Below, piece after piece: positions 12,356 through 63,495 of a stretch of 64,000 bases of DNA. The stretch comes from Pseudomonadota bacterium (GTDB lineage: Bacteria > Pseudomonadota > Gammaproteobacteria > Burkholderiales > Rhodocyclaceae): the NCBI GenBank assembly GCA_040756595.1, contig JBFLYR010000004.1, positions 22,695 to 86,694 of the forward strand, in the 5' to 3' direction. Both the position numbers and the translations under genes were made by a program. Position 1 is the first letter of the stretch. Each line of letters starts with the position of its first letter. A model generated the notes under the pieces. The model was given only the letters and a program-made list of their open reading frames with translations. It searched no databases and was not told where the DNA came from.

Positions 12356-14338
12356 ATGCCCGCCCAACCTGATCTAGACCGACTTTTCGCCGCCGACGGC
12401 CCGCTCGCTCGGGCCATTCCCGGTTACCGCCTGCGCGAACAGCAGATCGCCATGGCGCGCGAAGTGCAGGCGGCCATAGAAGCCAATCGCCTGCTGGTCG
12501 CCGAAGCCGGCACCGGCACCGGCAAGACCTTCGCCTATCTTGCACCCGCATTACTCTCAGGCGGCAAGGTGGTCATCTCCACCGGCACCAAGACCCTGCA
12601 GGACCAGCTCTTCAACCGCGACCTGCCGACCGTGCGCGACGCACTCGGCATGCCGGCGACCATCGCCTTGCTGAAGGGGCGCGCCAACTACCTCTGCCCG
12701 CACCATCTCGACCGCGCGCTCTCCGGCGGCAAGCTCAACTCGCGCGCCGAAGTGATGCACTTGCATGCCATCGCACGCTTCGCCAAGCTCACCGCGAGCG
12801 GCGACAAGGCCGAATGCACCGACGTGCCCGAGGATTCCGGCGCGTGGTACCTCGCCACCTCGACGCGCGAGAACTGCCTCGGGCAGGAGTGCGCCCACGT
12901 CAAGGAATGCTTCGTCCTCGCGGCGCGGCGCGAGGCGCTGCTCGCCGACGTGGTGGTCGTGAACCACCACCTGTTCTTCGCCGACGTGATGCTCAAGGAC
13001 GACGGCATGGGCGAACTGCTGCCGAGCTGCAACACCATCATCTTCGACGAAGCGCACCAGTTGCCCGAAGTGGCCGGCCTGTTCTTCGGCGAGAGCGTCG
13101 GCACGGGCCAGTTGCTCGATCTCGCGCGCGATGCCAAGCTCGAAGGCATCGCCGCCGCCAAGGACTACAAGCCGCTGCAGGAGGCGGTGAAGGCGCTGGA
13201 AAAGGCGGCGAAGGACTTGCGCCTCGCCTTCCGCCACGAGGGCCGCCTCGCCACCGCGCAATGGCTCCAGCACCCGCAGGCCATCGAGGCGCTGAAGCAT
13301 GTGCAGGCGATGCTCGACGAGCTTGGCAAGCATCTCGAAAGCCAGGCCGGACGCTCGGAAGGGCTGGCCAACTGCCTGCGCCGCTGCGGCGAACTCGTGC
13401 TGCTGCTGCGCCATTGGCAGAACGCGAAAGTCGGCGCTGACAAGACGGCACAGGGGGAGGACGAAGAGGAAGAAGAAATTCAGCCGGTACGCTGGGTCGA
13501 AGTAACGACCTACGGTGTCAGCTTCAATCTCACGCCGCTGTCGGTCGCACCGATCTTCCGCAAGCAACTCGAAGGCCATCCGCGCGCGTGGATCTTCACC
13601 TCGGCGACACTCGCGGTCGGCGAGGACTTTTCGCATTACCGCAATGCGCTGGGATTGACGGAGGCCGCCACCGGCCGCTGGGACAGTCCCTTCGACTACC
13701 CGGTCAACGCGCTGCTCTATTGTCCGACCGGCATGCCCGACCCGAACCATCCAGATTATGCCGAGGCCGTGGTCGAAGCCTGCTGGCCGGCGATCAAGGC
13801 ATCGCACGGCCGGGCCTTCGTGTTGTGCACCAGCCTACGCGCGATGCGGCGTATCCACGAACTGCTGGAACTGCGCATTGAAAACGACAGGCTCGACATG
13901 CCGTTGCTGCTGCAGGGACAGCGTTCGAAGTCCGAGCTGCTCGACAGCTTCCGCCGCCTCGGCAATGCCGTGCTGGTGGCGAGCCAGAGCTTCTGGGAAG
14001 GCGTTGATGTGCGCGGCGAGGCACTTTCGCTCGTCGTCATCGACAAGCTGCCCTTCGCGCCGCCCGACGACCCGGTGCTCGCGGCGCGCATCGATACCCT
14101 GAAGCGTCAGGGCCGCAATGCCTTCTTCGAGGTGCAGTTGCCGCGCGCGGTGATCAGCATGAAGCAGGGCGCGGGGCGGCTGATCCGCGACGAGACCGAC
14201 CGCGGCGTGCTGATGGTCTGCGACCCGCGCATGGTCGACAAGCCTTATGGCCGGCGCATCTGGCAGAGCCTGCCGCCGATGCGGCGCACGCGCGAGATCG
14301 CCGACGTCGAAGCGTTTTTCGAGAATCAGGAGAGCTGA
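12356..14338 (+). CDS. yoaA: ATP-dependent DNA helicase, XPD-like Fe-S family (YoaA/DinG type)
   Basis: 660 aa with [18 protein letters not shown] (Walker A), DEAH (FDEAHQL), a four-Cys region (C..C..C..C around residues 115-185), and an N-terminus resembling E. coli YoaA as I recall it. Confidence 0.8.
13427..13450 (+). repeat. 24-nt dispersed repeat, copy 2 (3 substitutions)
   Basis: AAAGTCGGCGCTGACAAGACGGCA lies in frame in yoaA, read as KVGADKTA. It is followed by a purine-rich tract encoding QGEDEEEEE. Confidence 0.8.
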
Positions 14339-14339
14339 C

Positions 14340-14660
14340 ATGGCATGGATCCTTCTTTTTCTGGCGGGCCTGTTCGAGGTGGCCTGGGCCATCGGCCTGA
14401 AATACACCGAAGGCTTCACGCGGCCCATCCCGTCGGCGCTGACGCTGGCGGCAATGGTGGCGAGCGTCGTGCTGCTCGGCATTGCCATGAAGTCGCTGCC
14501 GGTCGGCACCGCCTACGCAGTATGGGTCGGCGTCGGCGCGGTGGGCACCGCGATCCTCGGCATCGTGCTGTTCGCCGAGCCGGCCACGGCGGGCCGGCTG
14601 ATCAGTCTGGCCCTGATCGTCGCCGGCATCGTCGGGCTGAAATTGGCGACGCCGGCATGA
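14340..14660 (+). CDS. sugE: SMR-family guanidinium/quaternary ammonium efflux protein (SugE/Gdx)
   Basis: 106 aa, [26 protein letters not shown]..., with a conserved Glu in TM1 and four helices. Confidence 0.88.
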
Positions 14661-15746: not shown

Positions 15747-15990
15747 TATTGTTTTCCTATGGTCTTCACGAGGGGAGCCCCGTCGACCCACCATACGCGC
15801 ATTGCCCACATGTGCAAGACAATTCGTGACCTTGTCAGCAGAGTTCGCTACGAAGCGAAAACCCACATATCAAGCATGGGAAGCAGAATGTGGCCTGGTG
15901 TTATAGGGGAACCACGATATGCGGAAAGTTGGCACTGGCAGGAGGGTGATGCAAGTAAGATGAATACCCCCATTAAAGATTGACCCGACC

Positions 15991-17070
15991 ATGACCGATC
16001 TGTTTTCACCTGCCCGTTTCGGCGCCATCGAGCTTGCCAACCGCATCGTGATGTCGTCGCTGACGCGTAACCGCGCGGGGGCGGGCAACGTGCCGACGCC
16101 GCTGGTGGCCGAGTACTACCGGCAGCGCGCCAGCGCCGGCCTGATCCTCACCGAGGCGTCGCCGATCTGCCCGGCGGGGCACGGCTATCCGCGCACGCCG
16201 GGCATTCACAGCGAGGCGCAGATCGCCGGCTGGCAGGGCGTGACCGATGCGGTGCATCGTGCCGGCGGCAAGATCGCCCTGCAGATTTGGCATGTGGGCC
16301 GCATCTCGCATCCGGATTTGCAGCCCGGCGGCCAGTTGCCCGTTGCGCCGTCGGCGCTCAAGCCGGCCGGCCAGACGTTCACGGGCACGGGCATGAAGGA
16401 CTTCGTCACACCGCGCGCGCTCGCGACGGACGAGATTCCCGGGCTGGTGGCCACGTATGCGCAAGCGGCGAAGAATGCGCTGGATGCCGGCTTCGACGGC
16501 GTCGAGGTGCATGCCGGCAACGGCTATCTGATCGACCAGTTCCTGCGTTCGTCGACCAACCAGCGCACCGATGCCTACGGCGGCAGCAAGGAGAAGCGCG
16601 CCCGCCTGCTGCTGGAAGTGCTCGATGCCGTGGCCGGCGCCATCGGCAACGATCGCGTCGGCCTGCGGCTCTCGCCGGTCACGCCCTTCAACGACATCCG
16701 CGACGACGCGCCGCAGGACACCTTCGACTACGTCGTGACGCAACTGAACCCACGCCGGCTGGCCTTCCTCGACATCCTGCAGGGCACCGGCGGTTCGCCG
16801 CGCGAGCAGTGGGAACCGTTCGACTACGACCGCCTGCGTGATCTGTACGAAGGCAACCTGATCCTCAACAACGGTTACGACTTTGCCAGCGCGCAAGCGG
16901 CGCTCAGTGCGGGCAAGGCCGACGCCGTTGCCTACGGCCGGCTGCTGCTGGCGAATCCCGATCTCGTCGAACGTTTCCGCCGCGGCGCGCCGCTCAACCA
17001 GCCGGACTACGACAGGCTCTACGTCGGCGAGGAAAAGGGCTACACCGACTATCCCGCGCTGACAGGCTGA
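15991..17070 (+). CDS. nemA: NADH:flavin oxidoreductase / N-ethylmaleimide reductase (Old Yellow Enzyme family)
   Basis: 359 aa. It is collinear with E. coli NemA as recalled (PLTRxRA, EYYRQRASAGLI, HxANGYLxxQFL, GYTDYP at the C-terminus). Confidence 0.85.
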   Translation: MTDLFSPARFGAIELANRIVMSSLTRNRAGAGNVPTPLVAEYYRQRASAGLILTEASPICPAGHGYPRTPGIHSEAQIAGWQGVTDAVHRAGGKIALQIWHVGRISHPDLQPGGQLPVAPSALKPAGQTFTGTGMKDFVTPRALATDEIPGLVATYAQAAKNALDAGFDGVEVHAGNGYLIDQFLRSSTNQRTDAYGGSKEKRARLLLEVLDAVAGAIGNDRVGLRLSPVTPFNDIRDDAPQDTFDYVVTQLNPRRLAFLDILQGTGGSPREQWEPFDYDRLRDLYEGNLILNNGYDFASAQAALSAGKADAVAYGRLLLANPDLVERFRRGAPLNQPDYDRLYVGEEKGYTDYPALTG

Positions 17071-17093
17071 AAGTCGGCGCCGGCGAGACGGCA
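17070..17093 (+). repeat. 24-nt dispersed repeat, copy 3 (2 substitutions)
   Basis: AAAGTCGGCGCCGGCGAGACGGCA. Its first A is the last base of the nemA TGA stop codon. Confidence 0.9.
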
Positions 17094-17115
17094 CGGGCGC
17101 GGTAAACTCGGCGCG

Positions 17116-18189
17116 ATGAAGCTTTCAGACCTTCCCGCCGATCTGCTGGCCGATCGGCCGCATCTGTTCTCTGCCGCCACCGTGCCGGTGACGGCGGACG
17201 ATATGGCGCGCATGCGGGAAGTGATCGACGCGGTCGAGCATGTGATTGCATTGAAAGTCGGCGCTGGTGAGACGGCAGCCGCAGCAGGGCACGGCGTCTT
17301 CATGGGCTACGACTTCCATCTGACGCCGGCCGGCCCGCAACTCATCGAGATCAACACCAATGCCGGCGGCGGGCTGCTCGCGGCATTGCAGGCGCAGCGC
17401 GACGACGTGCTGGCTGCCTACGCCGCGATGTTCCGCGCCGAATGCCCACGTGAACTCAAGGCGCTCGCCATCGTCGATGAACAGCCGGCGAGCCAGTACC
17501 TCTACCCGGAGTTCCTCGGCTTCAAGCAGTTGTTCGAGGCGCACGGCATCACGGCGGTGATCTGCGATCCGTCCGAACTGATGCTCTGCCACGGCAACCT
17601 TTGGCACGAGGAAACGAAGCTCGACCTCATCTACAACCGGCTCACCGATTTCGATTTTTCAATGCCGGCGCACGCGGTGCTGCGCGAGGCCTGGCGGCAG
17701 GGCGTGACGATCACGCCCAACCCGGTGCTGCACGCGCACTATGCCGACAAGAAGAACCTGATCGCTCTGACCGATGCCGCCCAACTGGAAGCTTGGGGCG
17801 TCGATGCCGGGACGCAACGCATCCTGCTCGATGGCATTCCACGCACCGAACAGGTTGCGACGGAACGTGCCGATGATTTCTGGCAGCGCCGCAAGCAACT
17901 GTTCTTCAAGCCGGCGCTGGGCTATGGCTCGAAGGGCTCATATCGCGGCGACAAGCTGACCAAGCGGGTGTTCGAGGAAATCCTCGCCGGCGACTATGTC
18001 GCGCAAGCCTTTGCTCCGCCGTCGACCGTCCCGCTTGATGTGGCCGGGGAAATGACCGAGCTCAAGGCTGATGTCCGCAACTATGTGTATCGTGGCGCGG
18101 TCCAACTGGTGGCAGCGCGCCTGTATCAGGGGCAGACGACGAATTTCAGGACACCGGGCGGCGGTTTCGCGAAGGTAATCGAGGCATGA
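17116..18189 (+). CDS. Uncharacterised protein, possibly ATP-grasp-like
   Basis: 357-aa ORF with good coding appearance. The motifs IEINTNAGGG and NFRTPGGGFA are reminiscent of ATP-grasp/GSP-synthetase-like folds. This is a weak, memory-based assignment. Confidence 0.5.
   Translation: MKLSDLPADLLADRPHLFSAATVPVTADDMARMREVIDAVEHVIALKVGAGETAAAAGHGVFMGYDFHLTPAGPQLIEINTNAGGGLLAALQAQRDDVLAAYAAMFRAECPRELKALAIVDEQPASQYLYPEFLGFKQLFEAHGITAVICDPSELMLCHGNLWHEETKLDLIYNRLTDFDFSMPAHAVLREAWRQGVTITPNPVLHAHYADKKNLIALTDAAQLEAWGVDAGTQRILLDGIPRTEQVATERADDFWQRRKQLFFKPALGYGSKGSYRGDKLTKRVFEEILAGDYVAQAFAPPSTVPLDVAGEMTELKADVRNYVYRGAVQLVAARLYQGQTTNFRTPGGGFAKVIEA
17254..17277 (+). repeat. 24-nt dispersed repeat, copy 4 (2 substitutions)
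   Basis: AAAGTCGGCGCTGGTGAGACGGCA lies in frame in the 17116 ORF and is read as KVGAGETA. Confidence 0.9.
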
Positions 18190-18683: not shown

Positions 18684-19978
18684 GTTACGAAGAAGCCCTC
18701 GATCATTTGCTTGCCGCCGCAGAGCCCGTGGCGGAAACGAAGCAGTTGCCACTCTCGGTTGCACGCGGCCGCATCCTCGCCGAAGCGGTCGCTTCGACCG
18801 TGACGGTGCCGCCGCTCGACAACAGCGCGATGGACGGCTATGCGGTGCGCTGCGCGGATGTCCAACAGACCGGTGTGGCATTGCCCATATCGCAGCGCAT
18901 CCCGGCGGGCAGCGTCGGCCATGCGCTCGCAGCCGGTACGGCAGCGCGCATCTTCACCGGCGCGCCGGTACCGGCCGGTGCCGATGCGGTGGTGATGCAG
19001 GAATATTGCACGCAAATGAGCGAGCACGGCCCCGATGGCAGGGTGATCGTCAATCAGGTGCCGAAGCCCGGCCAGAACATCCGCCGTGCGGGCGAGGACA
19101 TCACTGCCGGCGCCGCCGTGCTGCAAGCCGGCACGCGCATCGGCGCGGCCGAGATCGGCCTCGCGGCCTCGATCGGCATCGCGCAACTGCCGGTGCGGCG
19201 CCACCTGCGCGTCGCGCTGCTGTCGACCGGCGACGAGCTGACCGAACCCGGCAATCCCCTGCCGCCGGGCGGCATCTACAACTCGAACCGCCATTTCCTG
19301 CGTGCGATGTTCGAGCAGATGGGTTGCACGGTGACCGATGCCGGCCATGTGCCGGACACGCTCGATGCGACGCGTGCGGCGCTGCGCGCGGCGGCGGAAG
19401 CGCACGACCTGATCGTCACCTCCGGCGGCGTGTCGGTGGGCGAGGAAGATCACGTCAAGCCGGCGGTCGAGGCGGAAGGCGCGCTGTCGCTGTGGAAGAT
19501 CGCCATCAAGCCGGGCAAACCGCTGGCCTTCGGCCATGTGCGAAAAGTCGGCGCTGGGCCGTCCCAAGCCGACGCCCCCCCTGTGGGGGGCAGCGAGCCG
19601 GGTTTGCGAGCGAGGGGGGCCAATAAAGTCGGCGCTGGCGGGACGGCATTCATCGGCCTGCCGGGCAACCCGGTTTCCTGCTTCGTGACCTTCCTGCTGT
19701 TCCTGCGCCCCTATGTGCTGAAGCGCATGGGCATGGCGACCACCTTGCCGCTGGCGCGTCAACTCGTGTCGGCGTCCGACTGGACCAAGCCCGAGGATCG
19801 GCGCAGCTTCCTGCGCGCGCGCATCGCGCCGGACGGCCGCGTCGAGTTGTATCCGAACCAGAGTTCCGGCGTGCTGACCTCCTGCGCCTGGGCCGACGGA
19901 CTGGTGGATGTCGAGGCGAACAAGACCTTCAAGGCGGGCGACCCGGTGCGCTATCTCGCCTTCGCCGACTTGCTATAG
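18677..19978 (+). CDS. moeA: Molybdopterin molybdenumtransferase MoeA (carries an in-frame insertion of about 35 codons)
   Basis: 433 aa with the motifs PPLDNSAMDGYAV, SGGVSVGEEDH, KPGKPLAFG and GLPGNPVS. The insertion lies between the last two motifs. Confidence 0.9.
   Translation: MLSYEEALDHLLAAAEPVAETKQLPLSVARGRILAEAVASTVTVPPLDNSAMDGYAVRCADVQQTGVALPISQRIPAGSVGHALAAGTAARIFTGAPVPAGADAVVMQEYCTQMSEHGPDGRVIVNQVPKPGQNIRRAGEDITAGAAVLQAGTRIGAAEIGLAASIGIAQLPVRRHLRVALLSTGDELTEPGNPLPPGGIYNSNRHFLRAMFEQMGCTVTDAGHVPDTLDATRAALRAAAEAHDLIVTSGGVSVGEEDHVKPAVEAEGALSLWKIAIKPGKPLAFGHVRKVGAGPSQADAPPVGGSEPGLRARGANKVGAGGTAFIGLPGNPVSCFVTFLLFLRPYVLKRMGMATTLPLARQLVSASDWTKPEDRRSFLRARIAPDGRVELYPNQSSGVLTSCAWADGLVDVEANKTFKAGDPVRYLAFADLL
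19544..19557 (+). repeat. 24-nt dispersed repeat, copy 5 (5' 14 nt only)
   Basis: AAAGTCGGCGCTGG is followed by GCCGTCCCAAGCCGAC, which resembles a deleted reverse-orientation copy. It lies in frame in moeA. Confidence 0.7.
19625..19648 (+). repeat. 24-nt dispersed repeat, copy 6 (perfect)
   Basis: AAAGTCGGCGCTGGCGGGACGGCA lies in frame in moeA and is read as KVGAGGTA. Confidence 0.95.
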
Positions 19979-22999: not shown

Positions 23000-25594
<2,595 letters not shown>

Positions 25595-44823: not shown

Positions 44824-44878
44824 TGCCCGGCAGTATAGGTTCTAAGCGGGGTATTTAGGCGCTAGAATGCCCGGTCGC

Positions 44879-44963: not shown

Positions 44964-45008
44964 TCGCATAACTTCTTCATTCTTTTCGCTTCATTTCAAG
45001 GATTCTTC

Positions 45009-46337: not shown

Positions 46338-46975
46338 TCCCGAGCATGGACACAATGCAACGTCAGGACGATCCTCAGGCGCTGGGTCTGGTGCCGATGG
46401 TCATCGAGACCAGTGGTCGCGGCGAGCGTGCTTATGACATTTATTCGCGCCTGTTGCGCGAGCGGGTGATCTTCCTCGTCGGCCCGGTGAATGATGTCAC
46501 CGCCAACCTGGTGGTCGCCCAGATGCTGTTCCTTGAATCCGAGAATCCGGACAAGGATATCTACCTGTACATCAATTCGCCCGGCGGCTCGGTGACATCC
46601 GGCCTCGCGATCTACGACACGATGCAGTTCATCAAGCCGGATGTGTCGACGCTGTGCGTCGGCCAGGCGGCCTCGATGGGCGCTTTCCTGCTGGCTGCCG
46701 GCACAGCCGGCAAGCGCTACTGCCTGCCGAACTCGCGCGTGATGATCCACCAGCCGATGGGTGGTTTCCAGGGCCAGGCCTCGGACATCGAGATTCACGC
46801 CAAGGAAATCCTCTTCATCAAGCAGCGCCTCAACGAGATGCTGGCGAAGCACACCGGCCAGCCGCTCGAGCGCATCGAACGTGACACCGATCGCGACAAC
46901 TTCCTGTCCGCCGAGGCTGCCGTGGAATACGGCCTGGTCGACAAGATGCTGACGAGCCGCGCCGACGCGGCCTGA
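46334..46975 (+). CDS. clpP: ATP-dependent Clp protease proteolytic subunit
   Basis: 213 aa with the motifs [30 protein letters not shown] (catalytic Ser) and MIHQP (His). Confidence 0.95.
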
Positions 46976-46998
46976 TACAAAACCCAAGGAGACCGGCG

Positions 46999-48261: not shown

Positions 48262-48317
48262 GGCAGTTTTCTTTTGCGGTATCCTGCCGTTGCCCGCTGT
48301 GATTGAGCGGGTGGCGG

Positions 48318-48345
48318 CTTGAATCCCTTGCCGCTGTCCCCATGT
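48318..48345 (+). promoter_or_regulatory. Candidate sigma32 (RpoH) heat-shock promoter of lon
   Basis: CTTGAAT (48318-48324), a 13-nt spacer, then CCCCATGT (48338-48345). This is a near-perfect match to CTTGAAA-N13-14-CCCCATNT and ends 35 nt before the lon ATG. Confidence 0.7.
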
Positions 48346-48380
48346 GGGGAAGACACGATTTTTCATGAGAGGATGCGTCC

Positions 48381-50816
<2,436 letters not shown>

Positions 50817-50852
50817 GTGGCAAGGCTTGCTAGAATCTGCCTCGGTTTGTGA

Positions 50853-50928
50853 GGGTGCTTAGCTCAGTTGGTAGAGCGTCGCCCTTACAAGGCGAATGTC
50901 GGGGGTTCGAGCCCCTCAGCACCCACCA
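50853..50928 (+). tRNA. tRNA-Val (anticodon UAC)
   Basis: Acceptor stem GGGTGCT/AGCACCC, D-arm AGCTCAGTTGGTAGAGC, anticodon loop CTTACAA, T-loop GGTTCGAGCCC and a CCA end. A TAGAAT hexamer lies 16 nt upstream. Confidence 0.92.
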
Positions 50929-50961
50929 ATAAACCTTGCAAACCAATTTGAGGTAATCTCG

Positions 50962-50987
50962 AAAGCCCGCCCAGTGCGGGCTTTTTG
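50962..50987 (+). terminator. Rho-independent terminator after tRNA-Val(UAC)
   Basis: AAGCCCGC-ccagt-GCGGGCTT followed by TTTT. Confidence 0.75.
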
Positions 50988-51009
50988 TTCGTTGCGCCAA
51001 CGCCAAAAG

Positions 51010-51897
51010 ATGCTGCTACGCATACTCGCCATCATCTTCCCGATCTTCGCCATAGTCGCGGCTGGCTGGCTCTACTCCCGCTATCGAAAGACGCGTGGCG
51101 GCATCGACATGGCATTCGCCAACCAGCTCAACATGGAAATTTTTGTGCCGGCGCTGATTTTTGCCGCGCTGGCATCGAAAAGTTTCGACCTCGCTGCCTA
51201 TGACCGTCTGGCGCTGGGCGCGCTGCTGTTAATGCTGGGGGCTGGTGTCCTGTCATGGGGGCTCACTTTGGTACTGCGCGAACAGCCCAAAACCTTTGTG
51301 CCGCCGATGATGTTCGTCAACTCCGGCAACATGGGCCTGCCGCTGATGGTGCTGGCCTTCGGTGACGCGGCTCTGCCGGCCGCAGTGGTGCTGTTCTTCG
51401 TCGAGAACGTGCTGCACTACACGCTTGGCACCTGGATGCTCGATCATCACGCACGATTGTGGAACCTCTGGCGCGTGCCGGTCATTTTCGCCGCACTGGT
51501 GGCGCTGGCGATCAATCTCTCCGGCTTTGAGCTCTGGCAGCCGCTGTACCTGTCGATCAAGCTGCTTGGCGACGTGGCAATTCCCTTGCTGCTGTTTTCA
51601 CTGGGCGTGCGGCTGGCCGTGTCGAATTGGAGCGATGTGCGCCTTGGCCTGATCGGTGCCGTGGCCTGTCCGGTGAGCGGCATGCTGCTCGCCTGGCTGT
51701 TGGCGTGGCTGCTCGGCTTGAATGAGAGCGACGCCGCCTTGCTCATGGTGTTCGGGGCCTTGCCGCCGGCCGTGCTCAATTATGTTTTCGCTGAACGCTA
51801 CCAGCAGGAGCCGGCCAAGGTGGCGTCGATCGTCATGATCGGCAATCTTGGTGCGCTGGTCTTCGTGCCGCTGGCGCTCGCCCTGACTTTGAAATAG
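51010..51897 (+). CDS. AEC-family (auxin efflux carrier-like) transporter
   Basis: 295 aa from ATG 51010, a polytopic membrane protein. The MLLRILAIIFPIFAIVAAGW start and overall pattern are typical of the AEC family. Confidence 0.7.
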   Translation: MLLRILAIIFPIFAIVAAGWLYSRYRKTRGGIDMAFANQLNMEIFVPALIFAALASKSFDLAAYDRLALGALLLMLGAGVLSWGLTLVLREQPKTFVPPMMFVNSGNMGLPLMVLAFGDAALPAAVVLFFVENVLHYTLGTWMLDHHARLWNLWRVPVIFAALVALAINLSGFELWQPLYLSIKLLGDVAIPLLLFSLGVRLAVSNWSDVRLGLIGAVACPVSGMLLAWLLAWLLGLNESDAALLMVFGALPPAVLNYVFAERYQQEPAKVASIVMIGNLGALVFVPLALALTLK

Positions 51898-51912
51898 GAG
51901 TTGCAGATTCCC

Positions 51913-52239
51913 ATGTCGCCACCTGAACAACCCGGATTCATCGGCAAACTGGTTTCCGTCATCATCGGTGCGATGCTGCTGGTGCTCGGCTTCATGTTCT
52001 CGATGGTGCTGCTGGCCGCCATCGTCGTTGTGGGTCTTGCCATCTGGGCCTGGTTCTGGTGGAAGACCCGGAAGCTGCGCCAGCAGATCGACGCACGCAT
52101 GCGTGAAAGTGCGGCGAATGCGCATGACTCGACCGGCGGCGACATCATCGAGGGTGAGGCGGTGGTCGTCGAAGAAGAGATTACTCGGGTAACTTCGAAT
52201 CGATTGCCAGAGTCACCGGACCGGCGTTCACCAGACTGA
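51913..52239 (+). CDS. Small membrane protein (hypothetical)
   Basis: 108 aa from ATG 51913 with two hydrophobic helices followed by an acidic tail. Its 3' 59 nt overlap the convergent dtd gene, so the true C-terminus is uncertain. Confidence 0.4.
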
Positions 52240-52633
52240 CCTGCATGTCGGCACCGAACACCCCGGTCGGTACCGGGCGTCCGAGTGCAGTGCCCAGCGC
52301 GGCGACGAAGCGTTCAAACATCGGTTGCGAAAAATCGGCTCTGGCGGCACGGCTCCATGAGGGGCGGTTGCCCTTCTTCACCGACGCGTAGAGCGTGAAT
52401 TGCGACACGGCGAGAACCTCGCCGCCGCTGTCGACGACGCTGAGGTTCATCACGCCTTGCGCATCCGAGAAGATGCGCAAGCCAAGCAGTTTGCGCACCA
52501 TCCAGTCGACGTCGGCGCCAGTATCACTGTCCTCGAAGCCGGTCAGCACCAGCATGCCAGGGCCGATGCTACCGGTGGTATTCCCGGCGACCGTGACGGA
52601 AGCGCATGTAACCCGCTGTACGACGACTCTCAT
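52181..52633 (-). CDS. dtd: D-aminoacyl-tRNA deacylase
   Basis: 150 aa with [23 protein letters not shown] and [15 protein letters not shown]. It is collinear with E. coli Dtd. The 639-aa track ORF is this gene plus an antisense shadow of recC. Confidence 0.92.
52331..52354 (+). repeat. 24-nt dispersed repeat, copy 15 (degenerate, 4 substitutions)
   Basis: AAAATCGGCTCTGGCGGCACGGCT lies antisense inside dtd and is read as SRAARADF. Confidence 0.6.
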
Positions 52634-52684: not shown

Positions 52685-55600
52685 ATGCTGCACATCCACC
52701 ATGGCAATCGTCCGGACAGCCTCGTCGCCGCGTTGACGACGCTGTTGCGCGTCGATCCGCTGCCGCTGCTGGAACCGGAAACCATCGTCGTCCCCTCGAC
52801 CGCGATGGCGCGCTGGCTGGGCTTCCAGCTTGCGGACGGGCTGGGGATCGCGGCCCAGAATGCCTTCGTCTTTCCGGCGTCCTACGTCTGGCAATTGTTC
52901 GGCCGCGTGCTGCCCGACGTGGCGACGAGCAATCCCTTCGACCGGGATGCAATGCATTGGCGCCTGCTGCGTTTGCTGGGTGACAGTCGCGCACCGGAAA
53001 TCCGCCATTACCTCGACGGGGATGACGGTGCACGCCAGTACGAACTGGCGGGAAAGCTTGCCAGCCTGTTCGATCGTTATCTCGTCGAGCGGCCCGACTG
53101 GATCGCGGCATGGAGTGCAGGCAAGCGGCTCGGCCTCGGTCCGGATGAAGTCTGGCAATCCGGACTCTGGCGCACGTTGCGCGCCGACCTGCCAGAGGTT
53201 GCGACGGAACATCCGCGCGAGCGCTTCCTCGCGGCATTGCGTGCCCAACCGGCCGTGCGTGCGCGCCTGCCGCGCCGACTCAGCCTGTTCTGTGTCGAGG
53301 CGATGCCTGCGCTGTATTGGGAAGTCTTTGTCGGACTCGCAGTGTGGCTCGACGTGCATGTCTTCGTGCTGGCGCCCTGTCGCGAATACTGGGGCGACAT
53401 CGAGAAAATGCGTGAACGGCTGCGCATGGAACTCGAACAACCCGAGGCGGCCCTGCTTTATGAAACCGGCCATCCGCTGCTGGCCTCGCTGGGCCGGGCG
53501 CGCCAGCATGCGGTGCTGCGGCTTGCCGATGCTGCAACGCAGACCGCCAGTGCCGAACATGAGTATTTCGTTGCTCCGCCCTCGACATTGTTGGGTGCCT
53601 TGCAGCGCGACATCCTTGACCTTTCGGCCAGTCGCGCGGTAGCGATGGACGCCACGCTGCAGATCCACGACTGCCACGGTGCGCAGCGCGAAGCAGAGGT
53701 ACTGCTCGACCGCCTGCTCGATCTGTTCGAACGGCTGCCGGATTTGCGACCAGCCGACATTCTGATCCTCACGACCGACATCGAAGCCTACGGTCCGATC
53801 ATCGAGGCCGTGCTGGCACATGCGCCGCGGGAGCGGCGTATTCCATGTACCGTGGCCGACCGGCCGCTCGCCATTGCGCCGCTCTGGCGCGCGCTGCGTC
53901 AGCTGTGCGTCGTGGCGGCGGGTGAGTTCGATGCGGAAAGCGTGCTGTCCCTGCTTGACGAACCCGCGCTGCGGCGCGCATTCGACATCGATGAAAACGA
54001 ATTGCCGCGACTGCGCGACTGGGTGGGCGAGGCTGGCATCCGCTGGGGCATCGACGGCGCGGCGCGTGCCCGACATGGTCTGCCGGCGGAAGATGCCCAC
54101 AGCTGGCGTGCCGGGCTACAGCGGCTGCTACTGGGCGTGGCGTTGCCGGATGCGCCCGAGCGTCTGTGGCAGGGCATGCTGCCGGTGACGGGAATCGAAG
54201 GCGAGCGGGCTGAGTTGCTGGGCCGTTTCGTCGATTTCACCGAAGCTTTGTTTGGGCTGAGTGAAAAAGTCGGCGCTGGCAGGACGGCATCGGAATGGTG
54301 TCGGCTGCTTGCCGCGACGCTGGAACACTTTCTCGCACCCGACGAAGCGGAGGAGGGGCAGGCGCAAGGCTTGCGGGAAACGCTGACCCGGCTCGGCGAA
54401 CTGGCGGATTCCGCGCGATGCGCCACCCGGCTGCCGTTGTCGGTGCTATTGCGTGAAATTGATGAACGGCTGAAAGAGCAGGCGCCCGCACAGGCATTCG
54501 TTTCCGGCACGGCGACGATCGCGGCGCTGCAACCCGGCCGTCCCGTTTCCGCGCGTGTCATCTGTCTCGTCGGCATGAACGACGGGGCCTGGCCGCGCCC
54601 GGCGACGCCACAGGGTTTCGACCTGATGGCCGCGCATCCGCGTCCCGGTGATCGCAACCGGCGCGGCGAGGAGCGTCATGCTTTCCTCGAAGCACTGCTG
54701 TGCGCGGGAGATGCCCTGATCGTCACGTATGCCGGGCGCGATCCGCGCAGCAACCTTGAATTGCCGCCCGCTGCACCGCTCGCCGAACTGATCGACACTC
54801 TTGTGGCAATGACCGGGAAAGCGGCCGATGCGCTGGTAGTGCAGCATCCATTGCAACCCTTTGGCAGCGCGTATTTCGATGGTAGAGACACGCGTATCTT
54901 CAGTTTCGATGCCGAGCATTGCCGACAAGCCTCCGTGCCGGCAGCCTCCGCATTCCTTGGCCGGAAGGTGCGTGTCGAAGCGCTTGACGTTGATGAAATC
55001 GACCTGCCGGAACTGCAGCGCTTTTTTGCTCACCCGGTGCGTCATTTCCTGCGCGAGCGCATGGGCATCCATCTCGAAGAGTCCGAGGAATTGCTCGACA
55101 TGCACGAACCCTTCGTGCCGAATGCGCTCGAAGCCTACCGGTTGCGGGAGGCGCAGTTCGCAGGGCTGGTGGCCGGCCACCCGGTTGATGAGGTGACCGC
55201 GCTATTGCATGCCCGTGGCTGGTTGCCGCAGGGGGTGGCGGGCGACCTGGCCGCGCGCGCGGCGCACGACGAGGCATTGCCGCTCTGGCAGAGCGCGCAA
55301 GCCTGGCTCGATGCAGGGCGCCAACCTGACTGCGCGGTGGAATTCGCAGCGCACGGGATACGCCTGAGCGGCCGGCTCGACGGCCTGACCGACCGCGGAC
55401 TCTGGCGCGTGCGCCACGGCAAGCTGCGCGCGAAGGACCGCTTGCGCCTGTGGCTCGATCATCTGCTGCTGAATGTCGCGGCGCCGGCCGGTGTGCCGCT
55501 GCACAGCAGCTTGATTGCCCGCGATGCGTTCATGCAGCTCGTACCGGAACCGCGTGCGCGTGAGGTTCTGGCTGGTCTGCTGGCGCTCTATCGTGATGGC

Positions 55601-55831
55601 TTGCTGCAGGCCTTGCCCATCTATCCGGAAACGGCGTGGGCCTGGTTGGAACAGAAGAACTGGCGCCGGGAGTGGGAGGGCGATGCTTTCAACTACAAGC
55701 CTGGCGAGCGCGATGACGCATATGTGCGCCTGGCCTTGCGCGATCGCCCGGAAGACCCGCTCGGCGCTGAGTTCCAGCAATTGGCAGAGCACATCTTTGG
55801 CCCCCTGAAACAGAAAGTCGGCGATGGCTGA
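52685..55831 (+). CDS. recC: Exodeoxyribonuclease V gamma subunit
   Basis: 1048 aa, beginning MLHIHHGNR...L, as is typical of RecC. It is followed by overlapping recB and recD genes. Confidence 0.9.
54266..54289 (+). repeat. 24-nt dispersed repeat, copy 16 (1 substitution)
   Basis: AAAGTCGGCGCTGGCAGGACGGCA lies in frame in recC and is read as KVGAGRTA. Confidence 0.93.
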
Positions 55832-55837
55832 ACGGCA
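55814..55837 (+). repeat. 24-nt dispersed repeat, copy 17 (3 substitutions)
   Basis: AAAGTCGGCGATGGCTGAACGGCA. The substitutions create the recB ATG (55824) and the recC TGA (55829-55831). Confidence 0.75.
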
Positions 55838-58800
55838 CTTCGTTCCCCTCGATTCGCCTTTCGAGGTCGAACTGACCGGCACGCGCCTGCTCGAAGCCGG
55901 CGCCGGTACCGGCAAGACCTGGATGCTGGCCGCGCTGGTCCTGCGCCTGCTGCTTGAACAGCAGATCGAGATTGGCAAGATCCTCGTCGTCACCTACACA
56001 CGCGCAGCCAGCGGCGAGCTGCGCGGCCGCGTTCGTGCCCGGCTGGTCGAGGCGCTCGCGGCTTTCGATGCGGGTCGCGCGGATGAACCCTACTTGCAAG
56101 CGCTGGTCGAGCGCATCGGTACCACGGGTACCGCTGGCGCCACCGCTGCCAGGGTACGCCTGCGGCTGGCGATCGAGAGCTTCGACGAAGCGTCCATCTT
56201 CACGATCCACGGTTTCTGCCAGCGCGCGCTCGGCGAAACGGCCTTCGCCGCCGGCCAAGCTTTCGAACGTGAATTGATTGCCGATCAGGGCGAGTTGCTC
56301 GCCGCCGTGGCACGTGATGCCTGGCGCAGGGAAATGGCGACGGCCTCGCCGCTCTGGGCGCAATGGCTGATTGACCACGTGCAGGGACCGGAGGGGCTGG
56401 CCGCCATCGTCAGATCGCATCTGGGACGCGTCGATGCGCGACTTGAAGCCCCCGCTCAGGTGGATCGGAAAGCCGCGGAGCAGCGCTTTGCCGCTGCCTT
56501 CGTAATGGTCAGGGACCTCTGGAAAGCCGATGCGGCGCGGATTCTCGACTGGCTGGCTGGCGCGAAACTGAACCAGCAAAGCTACAGCGCGAAGAAGATG
56601 CAGCCGCGCAGCGTTGCGCTCGGATTGTGGCTGTCCGCTGAACCACCCCTGTCGCCCCTGCTGCCTTTGCCCGAGGGCATCGAACATTTCGGGCTGGCGA
56701 AGATCGCGGCCAAGTTGAACAAAGGCGGTCAATTGCCGCAGCATGCTTTCTTCGCTGCCATGGACGAGCTGCTGCAATCCGCTGGCGAATTGCAGGCGGC
56801 TTGCGAAAGCGCGACGCGCCGGCTGCTGCAGGATTTCCTGCTGACTGCGCGAACCGGGCTTGCGGAGAGAAAACGGCGCAGTGGCCAGCAGACCTACGAT
56901 GACCTGCTGGTCGACCTCGCGCAGGCGCTCGACGGCCCGGCCGGGCCCCGACTGGTTGATAGCCTGCGGGCGCGCTACCGCATCGCCCTCGTCGATGAGT
57001 TCCAGGACACCGATCCGCTGCAGTTGCGAATCTTCATGTGTATCTTCGGTACCGACGAACGGCCGCTGATTTTCGTCGGCGATCCGAAACAGGCGATCTA
57101 CGGTTTCCGTGGTGCCGACGTATTCGCCTATCTCAAGGCGCGCACGCAAGCGGACACCGGTTATGCGCTGTTGGAGAATCGGCGCTCCGATCCGCCGCTG
57201 CTCAAGGCGGTGAATGCGCTGTTCGCCCGGCCGCTGCCGTTCCTGCTCGACGGCATGCCTTACGAGCCTTCCCGTGCGGCGGACAGGGTGCGGGAGATCT
57301 GCCGGATCGATGATGACGCCGCGCCGCTGTCACTCTGGACGATGCAAGCGCCCGAGGGCGGAAAAGGCTTCCCGAAGGACACGGCGCGCACGATGGCTGC
57401 CGAGGCCGTCGCCGCCGATATCGCGCGGCTGTTGGGCCTGAGCGCCACGGGGCGCGCGACGCTCGGCGAACGTCCTCTGGGCGGCGGCGATATCGCCGTG
57501 CTGGTGCGCCGGCATCGGGATGGTGATCTGGTCCGGCAGGCGCTGGCGCGGCACGGCATCCCCAGCGTCAGCGGCGGTGGTGGCAGCGTCTGGCACAGCG
57601 ATGAGGCAGTCGAGATCGAACGGCTGCTGCTCGCGGTGGCCGCGCCGGCGCGCGAGGGCTTGGTGCGCGCGGCATTGGCGACGATATTGCTCGGCGCGGA
57701 TGCAGCGCAGCTGGCAGCATGGCTGCACGATGAACCGGCGTGGAGTGCGCGCCTCGATTGCTTTCATGATGATCTGCTGCTATTCCGCGAACGCGGCTTC
57801 ATGGCGATGTGGCGCCGGCTGCTGCGCCGCGAAGGTGTTGTCGCGCGCGTGCTGGAACGGCCGGATGGCGAGCGGCGGCTGACCAACTACCGCCATCTGG
57901 CCGAATTGCTGCAGGCCGCCGAACAGGGCGCTGCGCTCGATGTCGAGGGGCTCGCGCGTCATATCGCGCAGCAGCGGCAGGCACCGGAAGGCGAGGAGAG
58001 CCAGTTGCGGCTGGAAAGCGACGCGCATCTCGTGCGCATCGTCACCCTGCATGCCGCGAAGGGTTTGCAATACCCCATTGTGTATTGTCCCTTCCTCTGG
58101 CTGGGACCCGAGGAGGACAAGACGGGCTGGCCCGTATTGGCACATCATGAGGGCAAAGCCTGCCTCGACTTCGGCTCGGAAGGCATCGACGGCCTGCGGG
58201 CGGCGGCGGATCGCGAGGACGCGGCCGAGGAGCTCCGGCTCGCCTACGTCGCGCTGACGCGCGCCGAACATCGCTGCATCCTTGCCTGGGGCAAGGTGAA
58301 CAACTGCGCCCGCTCGCCGCTCGCCTGGCTGCTGTTCGGGCCGCGCGAATCCGTGGCCGAAGAACCGCGTGTCTGGCTGGCGCGTTGGCTGGAAACCCAT
58401 GACGAAAGCGCGGCGCTGCACGCGCTCGAAGCGGGCCTCGACAGAGCCTTGAAGGTGATGCCGTTGCCGGGCGACGGTAGCGCGCCGCTGCCGCCCGCGG
58501 AAACGGTGCGAGCACATCGGCCACGGGACTTCATGAGCAAGGTGCCCGCGCCGTGGCGGGTTCAGAGCTTCTCGTCGCTCGCTGCCCGTCTCTCCGAAGA
58601 GGCGGAAACCGCCGATCGCGACGCGGTCGTGCCAGCCAGTGCCGTACCGCCAGCGCCGACTTTTTCGAATATTCAAAACTTCCCGCGCGGCACACGTGCC
58701 GGTAGCTGCCTGCATGCCTTGTTCGAGCGCATCGATTTCCAGGGCCGCACGCCAGTCGGCCCGACCGCCGCTGCGACGCTGGTGGCCTTCGGTTACGCGC

Positions 58801-60859: not shown

Positions 60860-60862
60860 GTT

Positions 60863-61108
60863 TTAGCGGCCCTGCTGGATCTTGTTGAGCATGCGGGCGC
60901 GGCCGGAAGCTTCGGCCTGGTTGGCCGCCGAAACCTGCCGACCGTAGGCGTCGCGATCCTCCTTGGAGCGCTTCACGGCCTCGATGCTCTTGATACAGCG
61001 CCAACGCGATCCTGTCTTGGTGATCAGCAACTTCATCTCCTCCACGGGATGATGAGTGCGGCAGTGATAGCAGTAGCGTGTCGCGGGTTCTTTTTTCTCG
61101 GTACTCAT
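60863..61108 (-). CDS. Small conserved-looking hypothetical protein
   Basis: 81 aa and basic, with a CYHC...C pattern. It has an ATG with an upstream ribosome-binding-site-like sequence. I recognise no family. Confidence 0.45.
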   Translation of the reverse strand: MSTEKKEPATRYCYHCRTHHPVEEMKLLITKTGSRWRCIKSIEAVKRSKEDRDAYGRQVSAANQAEASGRARMLNKIQQGR

Positions 61109-61155
61109 AAGCCTGCGGATTATACCTGTTTCGATTATTTTGCTTAATACCTCTG

Positions 61156-63495
61156 CTATGACGCCGGCTGCAGGCCGGTCGGCTTGAGTTTGGACGGAAT
61201 GGCGTGGCCCTTGCGGGCACGCTGGCCGCGATAGGCGGCGGCATCCTTGCCGGACAACTTCCAGTCGGTCGGTTTACCCCCTCGGCCACTACCGGTGACG
61301 ATGAAACTGTCGGCACCGACAGCGACGGCGGCCAGCTCGTCCTTGGCGTCAAGCGTCTGGATGATGGTGCCGCGCCCCTTGGCCATGGTCTTGAGTTCGG
61401 CGAGCGGGAAGAGCAGCAGCCGGCCGCAGGCCGTAATCGCTGCTGCCGTCCCGCCAGCGCCGACTTTTGCCGGGACGAGCGGCTTCTCGCCCTTGTCGAG
61501 CGACATGAAGGCCTTGCCGGCGCGGTTGCGCGAGACGAGATCGGCAATGCCGGCGATGAAGCCGTAGCCGCCGGAATTGGCGAACAGGTACTGCGTTTCC
61601 GGCGCATCGGTGAGCGCGTGGGCAAGCTTGCTGCCGTCCTGGAAGTCGACCAGCGTGGTGATCGGCACCCCGTCGCCGCGACCGCCCGGCAGGTCGGCCA
61701 CGCGTACGCTGTACGCTCTGCCATTGGTGTCGATGACGACCAGCGGCCAGATCGTGCGGCTTTCCTGAACGATATAGGGGAAGTCACCGGTCTTGTATCC
61801 GATGCTGGCCGGATCGATGCCATGGCCCTGGCGCGTGCGCACCCAGCCGTTCTTAGAGACGATCACGGTCACCGGCTCGTCGGGGATCGCGACTTCCGCG
61901 GCGGTCACCGGGGCGACGGCCTCAATTAGCGTACGGCGCTCGTCGCCGTATTTCTTCGCGTCCTCGGTGATCTCGCGCACGACGAGTTTGGTCAACTCCT
62001 TGCGGTCTTCGAGGATGCGGCGCAGTTCCTTCGCTTCCTCGGCCAGCGCCTTCTGTTCCTGCTCGATCTTGATGCCTTCGAGTTTCGCGAGCTGGCGCAG
62101 GCGGATTTCGAGGATGTCCTCGGCCTGAATCTCCGAAAGCTTGAACTTGGCCATCAGTTCGGCCTTGGGTTCGTCGGCCTCGCGGATGGTCTTGATGATC
62201 TTGTCGATCGACAGGAAGGCGAGCAGGCGGCCAGCGAGGATGTGCAGGCGGCGCTCGACTTCGCAGAGGCGGTGGGCGGAACGACGCTCGACGGTGGCAT
62301 GGCGGAACTGCACCCATTCGTGCAGCACCTGCAGCAGGTTTTTTTGCGCCGGCCGGCCATCGGTGCCCATCATGGTCATGTTGACCGACACGTTGGCTTC
62401 GAGGCTGGTGCGCGCGAGCAGTACGGCCATGAACTCGTCCTGCGGCACCTTCGACGTGCGCGGCTCCAGCACGATGCGCACGGGGTCCTTTTCGTTCGAT
62501 TCGTCGCGCACGGCGTCGAGCACGCCGAGCATCACCTGCTTGAGGTTCTTCTGCTCCTGCGAGACATCCTTCTTGCCCGGGCGTGCTTGCGGGTTGGTGA
62601 CGGCCTCGATTTCCGAGAGTACTTGCGCCGTGGAAACACCATGCGGCAGTTCGTAGACGATGACGCGCCACTGGCCGCGCGCCAGTTCCTCGATGCGCCA
62701 GCGGCAGCGCATGCGGACGCTGCCGCGGCCGGATTCGTAGGCGGCGCGGATGTCGGCATGGAGCGAGATGATCTGGCCGCCGCCGGGAAAGTCCGGGCCG
62801 GGCAGGGCGGCAAGCACTTCATCGAGCTGCGCACTCGGTTTGCGGATCACCAACTTGAGTGCTTCAGCCACTTCGCGCAGGTTGTGCGGTGGAATCTCGG
62901 TGGCCATGCCGACGGCGATGCCCGAGGCACCGTTGAGCAGCACGAAGGGCAGGCGGGCGGGCAGCAGCGACGGCTCGGTCATCGTGCCGTCATAGTTGGG
63001 CACGAAGTCGACCGTGCCCTTGTCGATCTCCGCTAGCAGCAGTTCTGCAATCGGTGTCAGGCGGCATTCGGTGTAGCGCATCGCCGCCGCGCCGTCGCCG
63101 TCGCGCGAGCCGAAGTTGCCTTGGCCGTCGACCAGCGGATAGCGCAGCGAGAAGTCCTGGGCGACGCGCACCATGGCGTCGTAGACGCTGCTGTCGCCGT
63201 GGGGGTGGAACTTGCCGATGACGTCGCCGACCACGCGCGCCGACTTGACGTGCTTGGCCGTCGACGGCAGGCGCATGTCGTTCATCGCGTGGAGGATGCG
63301 GCGCTGCACCGGCTTCAAGCCGTCTTCGACCTGCGGCAGGGCGCGCGATTTCACCACGCTCATCGCGTAGGCGAGGTAGGCGCGCTCTGCATAACTGTCG
63401 AGGGGCAGCGCCTCGCCTTCTGCAAAAGTCGGCTCTGGTGGGACGGCAGGGGGCGGCAGATCTGCCGCTGCTTCGAAAAGATCAGGCGTGTTCAT
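61156..63495 (-). CDS. parC: DNA topoisomerase IV subunit A
   Basis: 779 aa with the motifs [11 protein letters not shown], the AAMRYTE catalytic Tyr block and a C-terminal beta-pinwheel. Its start overlaps the parE stop codon (ATGA). Confidence 0.93.
61444..61467 (-). repeat. 24-nt dispersed repeat, copy 19 (perfect)
   Basis: The + strand reads TGCCGTCCCGCCAGCGCCGACTTT. The copy lies in sense and in frame in the parC C-terminal domain and is read as KVGAGGTA. Confidence 0.95.
63425..63448 (+). repeat. 24-nt dispersed repeat, copy 20 (2 substitutions)
   Basis: AAAGTCGGCTCTGGTGGGACGGCA lies antisense in the parC N-terminal extension and is read as AVPPEPTF. Confidence 0.9.

Follow-up and report, generated by a model that had tools for sequence, protein, structure and literature searches.

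A recurrent 24-bp word in Rhodocyclaceae genomes: reading-frame use, conservation as DNA and likeness to DNA uptake sequences

The word and its copies in the window

The 64 000-nt stretch studied here (contig JBFLYR010000004.1 of the Rhodocyclaceae assembly GCA_040756595.1, positions 22 695 to 86 694 of the forward strand; 62.5% GC), which as a whole we call the window, is dotted with copies of a 24-bp word, AAAGTCGGCGCTGGCGGGACGGCA. By analogy with known systems this word may be uptake-sequence-like, but long, bipartite and in a new family. At four or fewer mismatches the window holds 19 matches to it, of which 15 are on the + and four on the − strand; three of the 19 are perfect, seven carry one mismatch and six carry two. 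Three mononucleotide shuffles of the window yielded nothing with fewer than seven mismatches, and an independent repeat search of the window recovered the same family. The copies are spaced more evenly than random (coefficient of variation 0.59 versus 0.93, P = 0.011). Genes were called by codon log-odds and checked against Pfam; the copies lie as follows, where frame 1 places word base 1 at codon position 1.

9939–9962, +: perfect copy in a convergent intergenic gap, between the stop of a PCuAC gene (9917) and that of a pyridoxal phosphate (PLP)-enzyme gene (9964)
13427–13450, +: sense copy, frame 1, KVGADKTA, in a DinG-like helicase gene (12356–14338)
15925–15948, +: degenerate copy with six mismatches, intergenic
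17070–17093, +: copy sharing its first A with the end of the TGA stop of an Old Yellow Enzyme (OYE)-type oxidoreductase gene (15991–17070)
17254–17277, +: sense copy, frame 1, KVGAGETA, in a gene (17116–18189) with no Pfam family
19544–19648, +: 105-nt composite in moeA, consisting of a left half (19544–19557), a 67-nt insert and a full copy (19625–19648)
24563–24586, +: sense copy, frame 1, KVGAGGTA, in the variable linker from the ClpB middle domain to nucleotide-binding domain 2 (NBD2)
29554–29577, +: antisense copy, PSRQRRL, in the signal-peptide n-region of a YkuD L,D-transpeptidase gene (28427–29584, −)
33176–33199, +: copy directly after the TGA stop of a methyltransferase gene (32348–33175)
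35865–35888, −: copy 6 nt downstream of the stop, and in the orientation, of an ABC-F ATPase gene (35895–37526, −)
38298–38321, +: copy sharing its first A with the end of the TAA stop of a pseudouridine synthase gene; the copy is kept in stretch L040
39894–39917, +: antisense copy, CRPARADF frame, in a rhodanese-domain gene (39603–40658, −); the L040 orthologue has the same length and three differences
42939–42962, −: sense copy, frame 1, KVGADRTA, in an amine-oxidase (HpnE-like) gene
44224–44247, +: antisense copy, SRLASADF, in a squalene-synthase-like gene (43999–44823, −); length-neutral against HpnC 4hd1
52331–52354, +: antisense copy, SRAARADF, four mismatches, in the conserved dtd gene; no indel against E. 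coli Dtd (SKGASPDR)
54266–54289, +: sense copy, frame 1, KVGAGRTA, in recC; length-neutral against E. coli RecC (GLAQERPL)
55814–55837, +: copy forming the recC/recB junction, read as KVGDG-stop in recC and with an internal ATG opening MAER… in recB
58640–58663, −: antisense copy, AVPPAPTF, in the linker that immediately precedes the RecB nuclease domain; one residue more than E. coli RecB
61444–61467, −: sense copy, frame 1, KVGAGGTA, in the ParC C-terminal domain; one residue fewer than E. coli ParC
63425–63448, +: antisense copy, AVPPEPTF, in the proline-rich N-terminal extension of ParC; same length in relatives

Five of the full copies (9939, 17070, 33176, 35865 and 38298) lie outside coding sequence or overlap a stop codon. 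At the recC/recB junction, three substitutions turn the word into ATGGCTGA, which holds both the TGA stop of recC and the ATG start of recB and is read in two frames; this copy is kept in stretch L227 and in Sulfuricystis thermophila (ATGACTGA). Other sites also have counterparts in relatives: Sulfuricystis carries a better match to the word at the dtd site, extra inserts adjoin the RecB copy at 58640, and L008 and L065 have the ParC copy of 61444 unchanged or with a 1-nt difference. The rhodanese-domain gene also contains, at 40450–40463 (−) and in sense frame 1, a solitary left half of the word (AAAGTCGGCGCCGC…). The genes that carry copies are intact; ClpB, for instance, aligns end to end with E. 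coli ClpB.

The word is non-palindromic and bipartite, with the layout AAAGTCGGC-(variable centre)-GACGGCA, and spans 24 bp, or 25 with a preceding A or G. In the aligned copies its information content is high over 24 positions, weak for the A/G at position 0 and zero just outside. The arms (positions 1–9 and 18–23) are nearly invariant and most variation falls in the GCTGGCGG centre (positions 10–17). Beyond the full copies there is a continuous tail of matches at 5–8 mismatches, in excess of a triplet-shuffle control. Folding of the word gave no hairpin (z = 0.22 and 1.12 against shuffles), no Rfam family was found at it, and the Rfam search of the window returned four tRNAs only. An RNA or hairpin function was rejected on these grounds.

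The longest stretches of the window free of the word are 1–9900 (the nuo operon) and 44250–52300 (tig-clpP-clpX-lon), both made up of highly conserved genes, and both fit a survival of copies only where proteins tolerate them.

Frame use and constraint across the clade

A clade-wide set of copies was built from the window and 804 kb of sequence in at least 113 stretches that match the exact pattern in species-representative genomes. It holds 242 copies at four or fewer mismatches, and merging orthologous sites left 211 independent sites from about 40 related assemblies. Among the matches listed, carriers are essentially all of Rhodocyclaceae type, including Methyloversatilis, Sulfuritalea, Sulfurisoma, Sterolibacteriaceae and many metagenome-assembled genomes (MAGs); one consensus is common to Methyloversatilis, Sulfuritalea, Sulfuricystis and others. 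Closest to the window, at about 88% nucleotide identity, are L085, from a Sterolibacteriaceae MAG, and L225/L227, from contig_23020, and Sulfuricystis thermophila has nine copies in 22 kb, orthologous with those of the window. After dropping one ascertained copy per locus, density is 1–3 copies per 10 kb over about 30 assemblies. No copy was found in 1.1 Mb of recD loci from other taxa, a control taken from a metagenome scan with a RecD query that returned almost only distant RecD homologues (35–47% identity), and none in the 22-kb locus examined of Denitratisoma oestradiolicum (L230). The 11-mer CGACCTGCCCG occurs five times in that L230 locus and may sit in a repetitive flagellin gene at 1–2399. 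In L228, a mobile-element block at 1–7400 (HigB toxin, resolvase, Mu-type transposase, IstB, recombinase and DDE transposase) has no copy and the remaining 15 kb has four, numbers too small for significance.

The preliminary description, made from the window, stressed that the word has no stop codon in any of its six frames and that nine sense copies share one frame. The first point is true, yet unremarkable, being shared by 28% of random 24-mers at 62% GC and by 46% of shuffles of the word. The second stands for the seven complete sense copies (13427, 17254, 19625, 24563, 42939, 54266 and 61444), all with word base 1 at codon position 1 and all read as K-V-G-A-(G/D)-(G/E/K/R)-T-A, while the half copy at 19544 and the two-frame copy at 55814 drop out. 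Were all frames used equally, the probability that all seven share one frame, whichever it is, would be 0.0014. The antisense frames had been assigned correctly for all six window copies: (C/S)R(P/L/A)A(S/R)ADF at 39894, 44224 and 52331, AVPP(A/E)PTF at 58640 and 63425, and PSRQRRL at 29554. At the 211 independent sites, frame use was as follows.

Sense: KVGAGGTA 49, KSALAGR 12, SRRWRDG 0 (chi-square P = 1e-14)
Antisense: CRPASADF 16, AVPPAPT 37, PSRQRRL 1 (chi-square P = 1e-8)

Frame use across the clade is thus far from 1:1:1, and the bias is strong, not absolute. The pattern is stable at every gene-score threshold, and without any window member the counts are 43:12:0 for sense and 14:35:0 for antisense copies. 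The earlier statement that the SRRWRDG and KSALAGR sense frames are never used applies to the window; clade-wide it survives for SRRWRDG, with KSALAGR used 12 times. Likewise, all three antisense frames occur among the six window copies, but PSRQRRL is almost absent from the clade.

Usage of the six frames falls with the arginine count of the peptide (Spearman −0.96) and with its amino-acid biosynthetic cost (−0.94), the costs reportedly being those of Akashi and Gojobori. The sole PSRQRRL copy among 138 coding copies lies in the positively charged signal-peptide n-region of the YkuD transpeptidase (MPVPSRQRRLPNVGIGGRLLAFLAGLLIFGVAQA), the one context that welcomes a peptide of this type; the L225 orthologue holds a perfect copy at this site. 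Acquisition of copies in a specific frame, one of the two explanations first offered for the pattern, is not needed, since usage tracks arginine count and cost and PSRQRRL is confined to the signal-peptide n-region. We conclude with considerable confidence that the frame bias is a by-product of what proteins tolerate.

The copies outside coding frames are numerous. Against the 9% of the DNA that is non-coding, 104 of the 242 copies (43%) are non-coding or straddle a gene end (P = 1e-42); of the 138 coding copies (57%), 76 are sense and 62 are antisense. The non-coding copies cluster within 0–20 nt of stop codons: 12 share their first A with a T-R-A stop, nine begin directly after the stop, and about 30 in antisense orientation lie 0–20 nt past a stop.

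Conservation follows the DNA. Identity over 18 orthologous pairs is 92% in the word against 80% in its flanks (P = 2e-4); of the 36 differences between orthologous copies, 26 fall at positions 12, 16, 17 and 24. Positions 6, 9, 15, 18 and 21, which are four-fold sites as third positions of the KVGAGGTA frame, are almost invariant, as they are in intergenic copies; the variability profile is identical across all coding classes and intergenic copies. Synonymous positions are frozen, and the non-synonymous positions 16 and 17 vary. The G17A variant occurs in 48% of copies in the KVGAGGTA frame, where it changes Gly to Glu, in 60% of those in the CRPASADF frame, where it changes Pro to Leu, and in about 20% elsewhere, so that it is enriched only in frames where the residue changes. 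As the DNA is conserved while variant use differs by frame, we see two layers, a fixed word and a host protein that picks among the allowed variants. Constraint on the word very probably acts at the DNA level, with the dialects described below, and proteins only filter which frames survive.

Dialects and the origin of copies

Some lineages use altered forms of the word. In L225/L227, assembled from long reads, and L233, assembled from short reads, 13 of 14 copies have A at position 7 (the AAAGTCAGCGCTGG… variant): nine of the ten copies in L225/L227 read AAAGTCAG…, and all four in L233 have A7. Position 7 is G in 100% of the 242 other copies (Fisher P = 8e-20), and words of A7 type gave one match in the listed main-dialect loci (at least 113). 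The change took place at shared sites. All six L227 copies sit where the window copy has G7; seven L227 and L233 sites were aligned with, or assigned to, a gene site of the window, and six of these match window copies, all of them G7, with four of the 14 not compared. Two L225 copies correspond to the clpB and 35865 copies of the window and one has no window counterpart; the only L225 copy with G7 is the one at the 29554 site. Systematic nanopore error was rejected as the source of A7 since the independent short-read L233 has it in four of four copies.

A second dialect is found in the more distant L231 and L232 (ParC 77–78% identical), which use AAAGTCAGCCGTGGCGGKACGCCR (the AAAGTCAGCCGTGG… dialect). 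This form provides the top 11-mers in L231, with five copies in 22 kb, and has three copies in L232; its pooled count is also the highest. It occupies the ParC N-terminal site in both, and the C-terminal site in L231 (aligned) and apparently in L232 (match at 12059). Such concerted, site-by-site change within a lineage implies that a trans-acting specificity and the genomic copies co-evolve, and dialect co-evolution of specificity and copies has been described for the DNA uptake sequence (DUS) (PMC3630211).

How individual coding copies arose can be judged from homologues without the word. Compared with distant homologues, five of the seven window coding copies tested are length-neutral, with changes as follows.

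ParC C-terminal domain: −1 residue
Dtd, SKGASPDR to SRAARADF: 0
HpnC-like: 0
RecC, GLAQERPL to KVGAGRTA: 0
RecB: +1 residue
ClpB: +7 residues against E. coli and +3 to +5 against close relatives, in a hypervariable linker
MoeA composite: about +34 residues

The copies had been likened to in-frame inserts in surface loops, of the kind formed by the Rickettsia palindromic element (RPE); this likeness does not carry over, as residues are added only in ClpB and the MoeA composite. In an alignment of 120 ParC orthologues (72–94% identity), distant members already show PAKV(S/A)G(D/G)T and VPP(A/R)(P/L)TF at the two word sites, and the N-terminal site of Denitratisoma ParC has the same length without the word. 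The ParC N-terminal extension itself (window 63349–63495, residues 1–49) is proline-rich, about 49 residues long, absent from E. coli ParC and highly variable in length among the 120 orthologues. From the length-neutral sites, the ParC proto-sites and the tail of matches at 5–8 mismatches, most coding copies appear to have arisen in place at look-alike sequence, by overwriting rather than insertion.

The moeA composite is of a different kind. It contains an 81-nt unit, made of the 67-nt insert plus a second copy of the word's left 14 nt, which is inserted into existing copies; the insert combines an inverted partial word copy with a C7-TGT-G6 hairpin. The moeA composite is translated as a 35-residue stretch, about 34 residues longer than E. 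coli MoeA there, and the identical 35-residue translation recurs in ParC of three other genomes (P0136, P0145 and P0157), in L011 and in L049. Composites with the unit are located as follows.

Window, 19544–19648
L011, 606–719
L049, 4894–5103 (tandem)

Going by its sequence, the 81-nt unit resembles a small mobile element with the 24-mer as its target, and the word apparently doubles as a landing site, by analogy with repetitive extragenic palindromes (REPs), which serve some insertion sequences in this way. About 3% of copies are split by short inserts, often a GC-rich palindrome or an inverted partial word, which suggests that the word is prone to local rearrangement. Inserts of 12–66 nt interrupt or flank copies in L008 (7465–7542), L229 (about 14881), L038 (6237), L052 (38), L053 (7908), L067 (220), L077 (5363) and L017 (6174 and 6439); many contain GC-rich palindromes (GGGACGTCCC, GGGAATCCC, CCCCGCATGGGG and GTCCCCTTGGGGAC), and one rearranged copy is without its central 6 nt. 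A subset of ParC orthologues (P0139, P0146, P0147, P0162, P0204; L008 at about 4600) has an 11-residue insert, (A/Q/I/L/P)A(G/K)(S/L/A)-(A)(A/T)(N/T)(M/T)G, directly after the copy.

Candidate functions of the word

We regard the word as a DNA-level recognition word, kept uniform by a sequence-specific drive and most like DNA uptake sequences, a reading by analogy to which we give an even chance; that the recognising machinery is DNA uptake itself has, by the same analogy, an even chance at best. A conserved trans-acting machinery would recognise the word, and the drive would keep all copies matched to that machinery. The drive would consist of biased uptake of self-DNA by competent cells followed by recombination, making the word a counterpart of the Neisseria DUS and of the uptake signal sequence (USS) of Pasteurellaceae. 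New copies would emerge at local look-alike sequence and become fixed only where the protein tolerates them. Purifying selection would remove the arginine- and tryptophan-rich frames (SRRWRDG, PSRQRRL) and spare small uncharged peptides, and copies just past stop codons would cost nothing, hence their pile-up there.

We know of no drive other than biased uptake plus recombination that matches thousands of copies to one specificity. We rank the uptake reading first for this reason and because the combination of features is the published DUS signature. Like DUS and USS, the word is short, over-represented and repeated hundreds to thousands of times, occurs in both orientations, genic and intergenic, and is enriched in permissive places; it has a frame bias to cheap, versatile peptides, and its coding copies occupy residues of low conservation and bring no indels; several genera share it, in lineage-specific dialects, and it is conserved as DNA at orthologous sites and evenly spaced. 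The preliminary description had already pointed to the frame preferences of uptake sequences, and aptly: coding copies of DUS and USS show strong frame bias and lie at poorly conserved residues (PMC2817400), and uptake sequences prefer cheap frames and permissive regions (bioRxiv 10.1101/2025.10.24.684340). The right arm of the word, TGCCGTC, equals bases 2–8 of the Neisseria DUS ATGCCGTCTGAA; with 7 nt and a chance probability of about 0.015, we take this as a lead, not evidence. The explanation of frame use is much better supported than the uptake function.

A number of observations weigh against the uptake reading. First, the word is twice as long as any known uptake sequence, bipartite at 24 bp, with 24–25 consecutive high-information positions rather than a 9–12-bp core of the DUS/USS type, and it is 3–7 times less dense. 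Second, it is not arranged in inverted terminator pairs as DUS and USS are: of 128 pairs of neighbours, only one is inverted and within 30 nt, and no hairpin plus T-run accompanies the five non-coding copies of the window. (A role as a terminator was rejected on the lack of terminator-like structure at these window copies.) Third, no competence or pilin gene, and no cognate receptor such as a ComP-type minor pilin or ComN, was found among the Pfam-checked window genes, and our literature search returned no report of uptake or competence for these genera. Fourth, unlike DUS and USS, the word shows unit insertions, split copies and occurrence in low-GC phage-like contigs, and the uptake model does not predict an 81-nt unit that targets the word. 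Its frame bias, furthermore, does not follow codon preference as that of DUS and USS does. The 15:4 strand asymmetry of the window, an outlier against the clade, also speaks against this reading. The literature search gave no match for the word sequence itself. One gene fragment of the competence-regulator family TfoX_N was met by chance at 22204–22376 of L232, 10 kb from parC in a genome of the AAAGTCAGCCG dialect.

An alternative is that the word forms an array of binding sites for a chromosomal protein (in nucleoid architecture, in replication or segregation, or Chi-like for RecBCD), each maintained by ordinary selection; we think this unlikely. The DNA-level constraint, the two conserved arms around a variable centre and the even spacing would all suit such an array, as would the 15 versus 4 copies in the window, with most on the G-rich strand. 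Chi of E. coli is GCTGGTGG, from which the centre GCTGGCGG differs by one base, and the density of the word is said to be near that of Chi. Thus, in density, G-richness, centre and window polarity the word resembles Chi and the FtsK-orienting polar sequences (KOPS). It is, however, three times longer, and the 5–8-nt core is not its conserved part; the Chi hypothesis was rejected on the ground that no part of the word varies more than its Chi-like centre. Polarity across the clade is also weak or absent. We approximated replication orientation from the GC skew of 8-kb chunks, a noisy proxy, and from the concordance of neighbouring copies. Orientation relative to local skew is 123:101 clade-wide and 102:72 where |skew| is at least 0.02, the latter count favouring an array, and neighbouring copies have the same orientation in 70 pairs and the opposite in 58 (55% concordance), so that any bias is at most about 65:35, with a moderate bias compatible with the data. 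Re-tuning hundreds to thousands of sites one at a time into a new dialect is hard to imagine, whereas a drive does so automatically. We know of no architectural protein with a 24-bp asymmetric site at such density inside genes.

A further alternative, to which we assign a somewhat smaller probability still, is a selfish miniature insertion element, a 24/25-nt unit copied into genes and phages of which only harmless in-frame insertions survive, as with RPEs. Several of the observations that count against uptake speak for such an element. L042 and L087 differ by the clean presence or absence of 25 nt, with borders exactly those of the word, between abutting convergent stop codons, and L002 has a C-terminal addition of about 21 nt; information content is zero outside positions 0–24. 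Phage-like contigs with AT-richer flanks (45–55% GC) hold perfect, 71%-GC copies (L125 at 1242 and 1457; L115; L122; L140, L124 and L128), often as C-terminal tails; one such tail ends at the stop codon, and the tail KVGAG(G/R)TAPEGHN is common to three contigs. That 12 copies supply the last base of a stop would be expected if gene ends were the only places where out-of-frame insertions survive, and the same 105-nt composite occurs in different genes and genomes. On the other hand, five of seven tested coding copies add no residues, and ParC orthologues have a pre-existing look-alike at both sites. Four-fold sites are kept at about 20% flank divergence, which neutral relics would not do, and dialect shifts throughout a lineage at orthologous sites could not result from old insertions. 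Finally, the word lacks terminal inverted repeats, internal symmetry and a hairpin, and no target-site duplication accompanies the clean 25-nt indel; we know of no transposase for a 24/25-nt unit like this.

The word shares with RPEs that a repeated element lies in intact genes and is translated in frame, and the 105-nt composite in moeA and parC adds about 27–34 residues; RPEs, however, are palindromic, 100–150 bp long and residue-adding, whereas the word is 24 bp, has no fold, mostly replaces codons, is conserved at synonymous sites and has dialects. It resembles REPs and their composites (BIME, REPIN) as a high-copy short repeat near gene ends and an insertion target for small mobile units; REPs are imperfect palindromes and strictly extragenic, unlike the word, which has no hairpin and has 138 of 242 copies in genes. 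No RAYT (TnpA_REP) gene was found in the window. Miniature inverted-repeat transposable elements (MITEs) differ from the word in their terminal inverted repeats and target-site duplications. HIP1 of cyanobacteria (GCGATCGC) is an 8-bp palindrome linked to methyltransferases; like it, the word is lineage-specific, over-represented in coding and non-coding DNA and kept at the DNA level, but unlike it the word is long and asymmetric.

There is also an outside chance that the word is the recognition or writing site of a sequence-directed machinery that installs and re-homogenises the 24-bp unit in chromosomes and resident phages. Such a machinery might act by unit insertion or short-patch conversion, and the word would then not be an uptake tag. 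A writing site would jointly explain the 25-nt insertions, the phage copies, the split copies, the 81-nt unit and the dialect shifts.

Selection for the KVGAGGTA octapeptide itself as a flexible loop module, the other explanation offered in the preliminary description (a small Gly/Ala loop), is very improbable. About 80% of sense copies do use this frame and several lie in linkers (ClpB, the RecB tether, the ParC N-terminus), but 43% of all copies are non-coding, antisense copies are nearly as numerous as sense ones (62 of the 138 coding copies), synonymous positions are frozen while positions 16 and 17 vary, and the same DNA is kept whichever peptide is read, for example CRPASADF. That the frame pattern reflects codon usage or chance can be virtually dismissed: GC-rich genomes do limit coding-like frames, and only 7–9 copies were at first in view, but the frame with the best codon-usage score, KSALAGR, is used four times less than KVGAGGTA, and the P values of 1e-14 and 1e-8 were obtained on de-duplicated sites, with the pattern persisting without the window and at all thresholds.

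Uptake sequences are so far known from two families only, Neisseriaceae and Pasteurellaceae (bioRxiv 10.1101/2025.10.24.684340). If the word is an uptake sequence, it would represent a third such system, in the environmentally dominant Betaproteobacteria of wastewater and groundwater, with a longer bipartite word and clear dialects. Self-DNA tagging would then be more widespread and varied than thought, there would be a handle on gene flow barriers among Rhodocyclaceae, and the origin of the Neisseria DUS/ComP system could be tested through the shared TGCCGTC block. Should it not be an uptake signal, the word still offers a rare clean case of two layers of constraint in one sequence, in which degenerate positions pick the least harmful residue. 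The word and its dialects could serve as a marker for binning and for spotting foreign DNA in these genomes, and experiments are feasible in a culturable carrier, Sulfuricystis thermophila.

Some further features were noted in passing. The viral-collection contig L119 contains, at 629–2123 and 3489–4269, 4.7 repeats of a 316-nt unit, 91% identical; every unit holds a single word copy and an attC-like GCCTAAC…GTTAGGC pair, and the array adjoins an integron-integrase-like gene, so that it looks like an amplified integron cassette. The tRNA genes of the window lie at 7722–7808 (−), 8243–8316, 44879–44960 and 50853–50925. A hopanoid-type cluster at 41907–44823, with two squalene/phytoene-synthase genes and an amine oxidase (hpnC/D/E-like), contains two of the word copies listed above.

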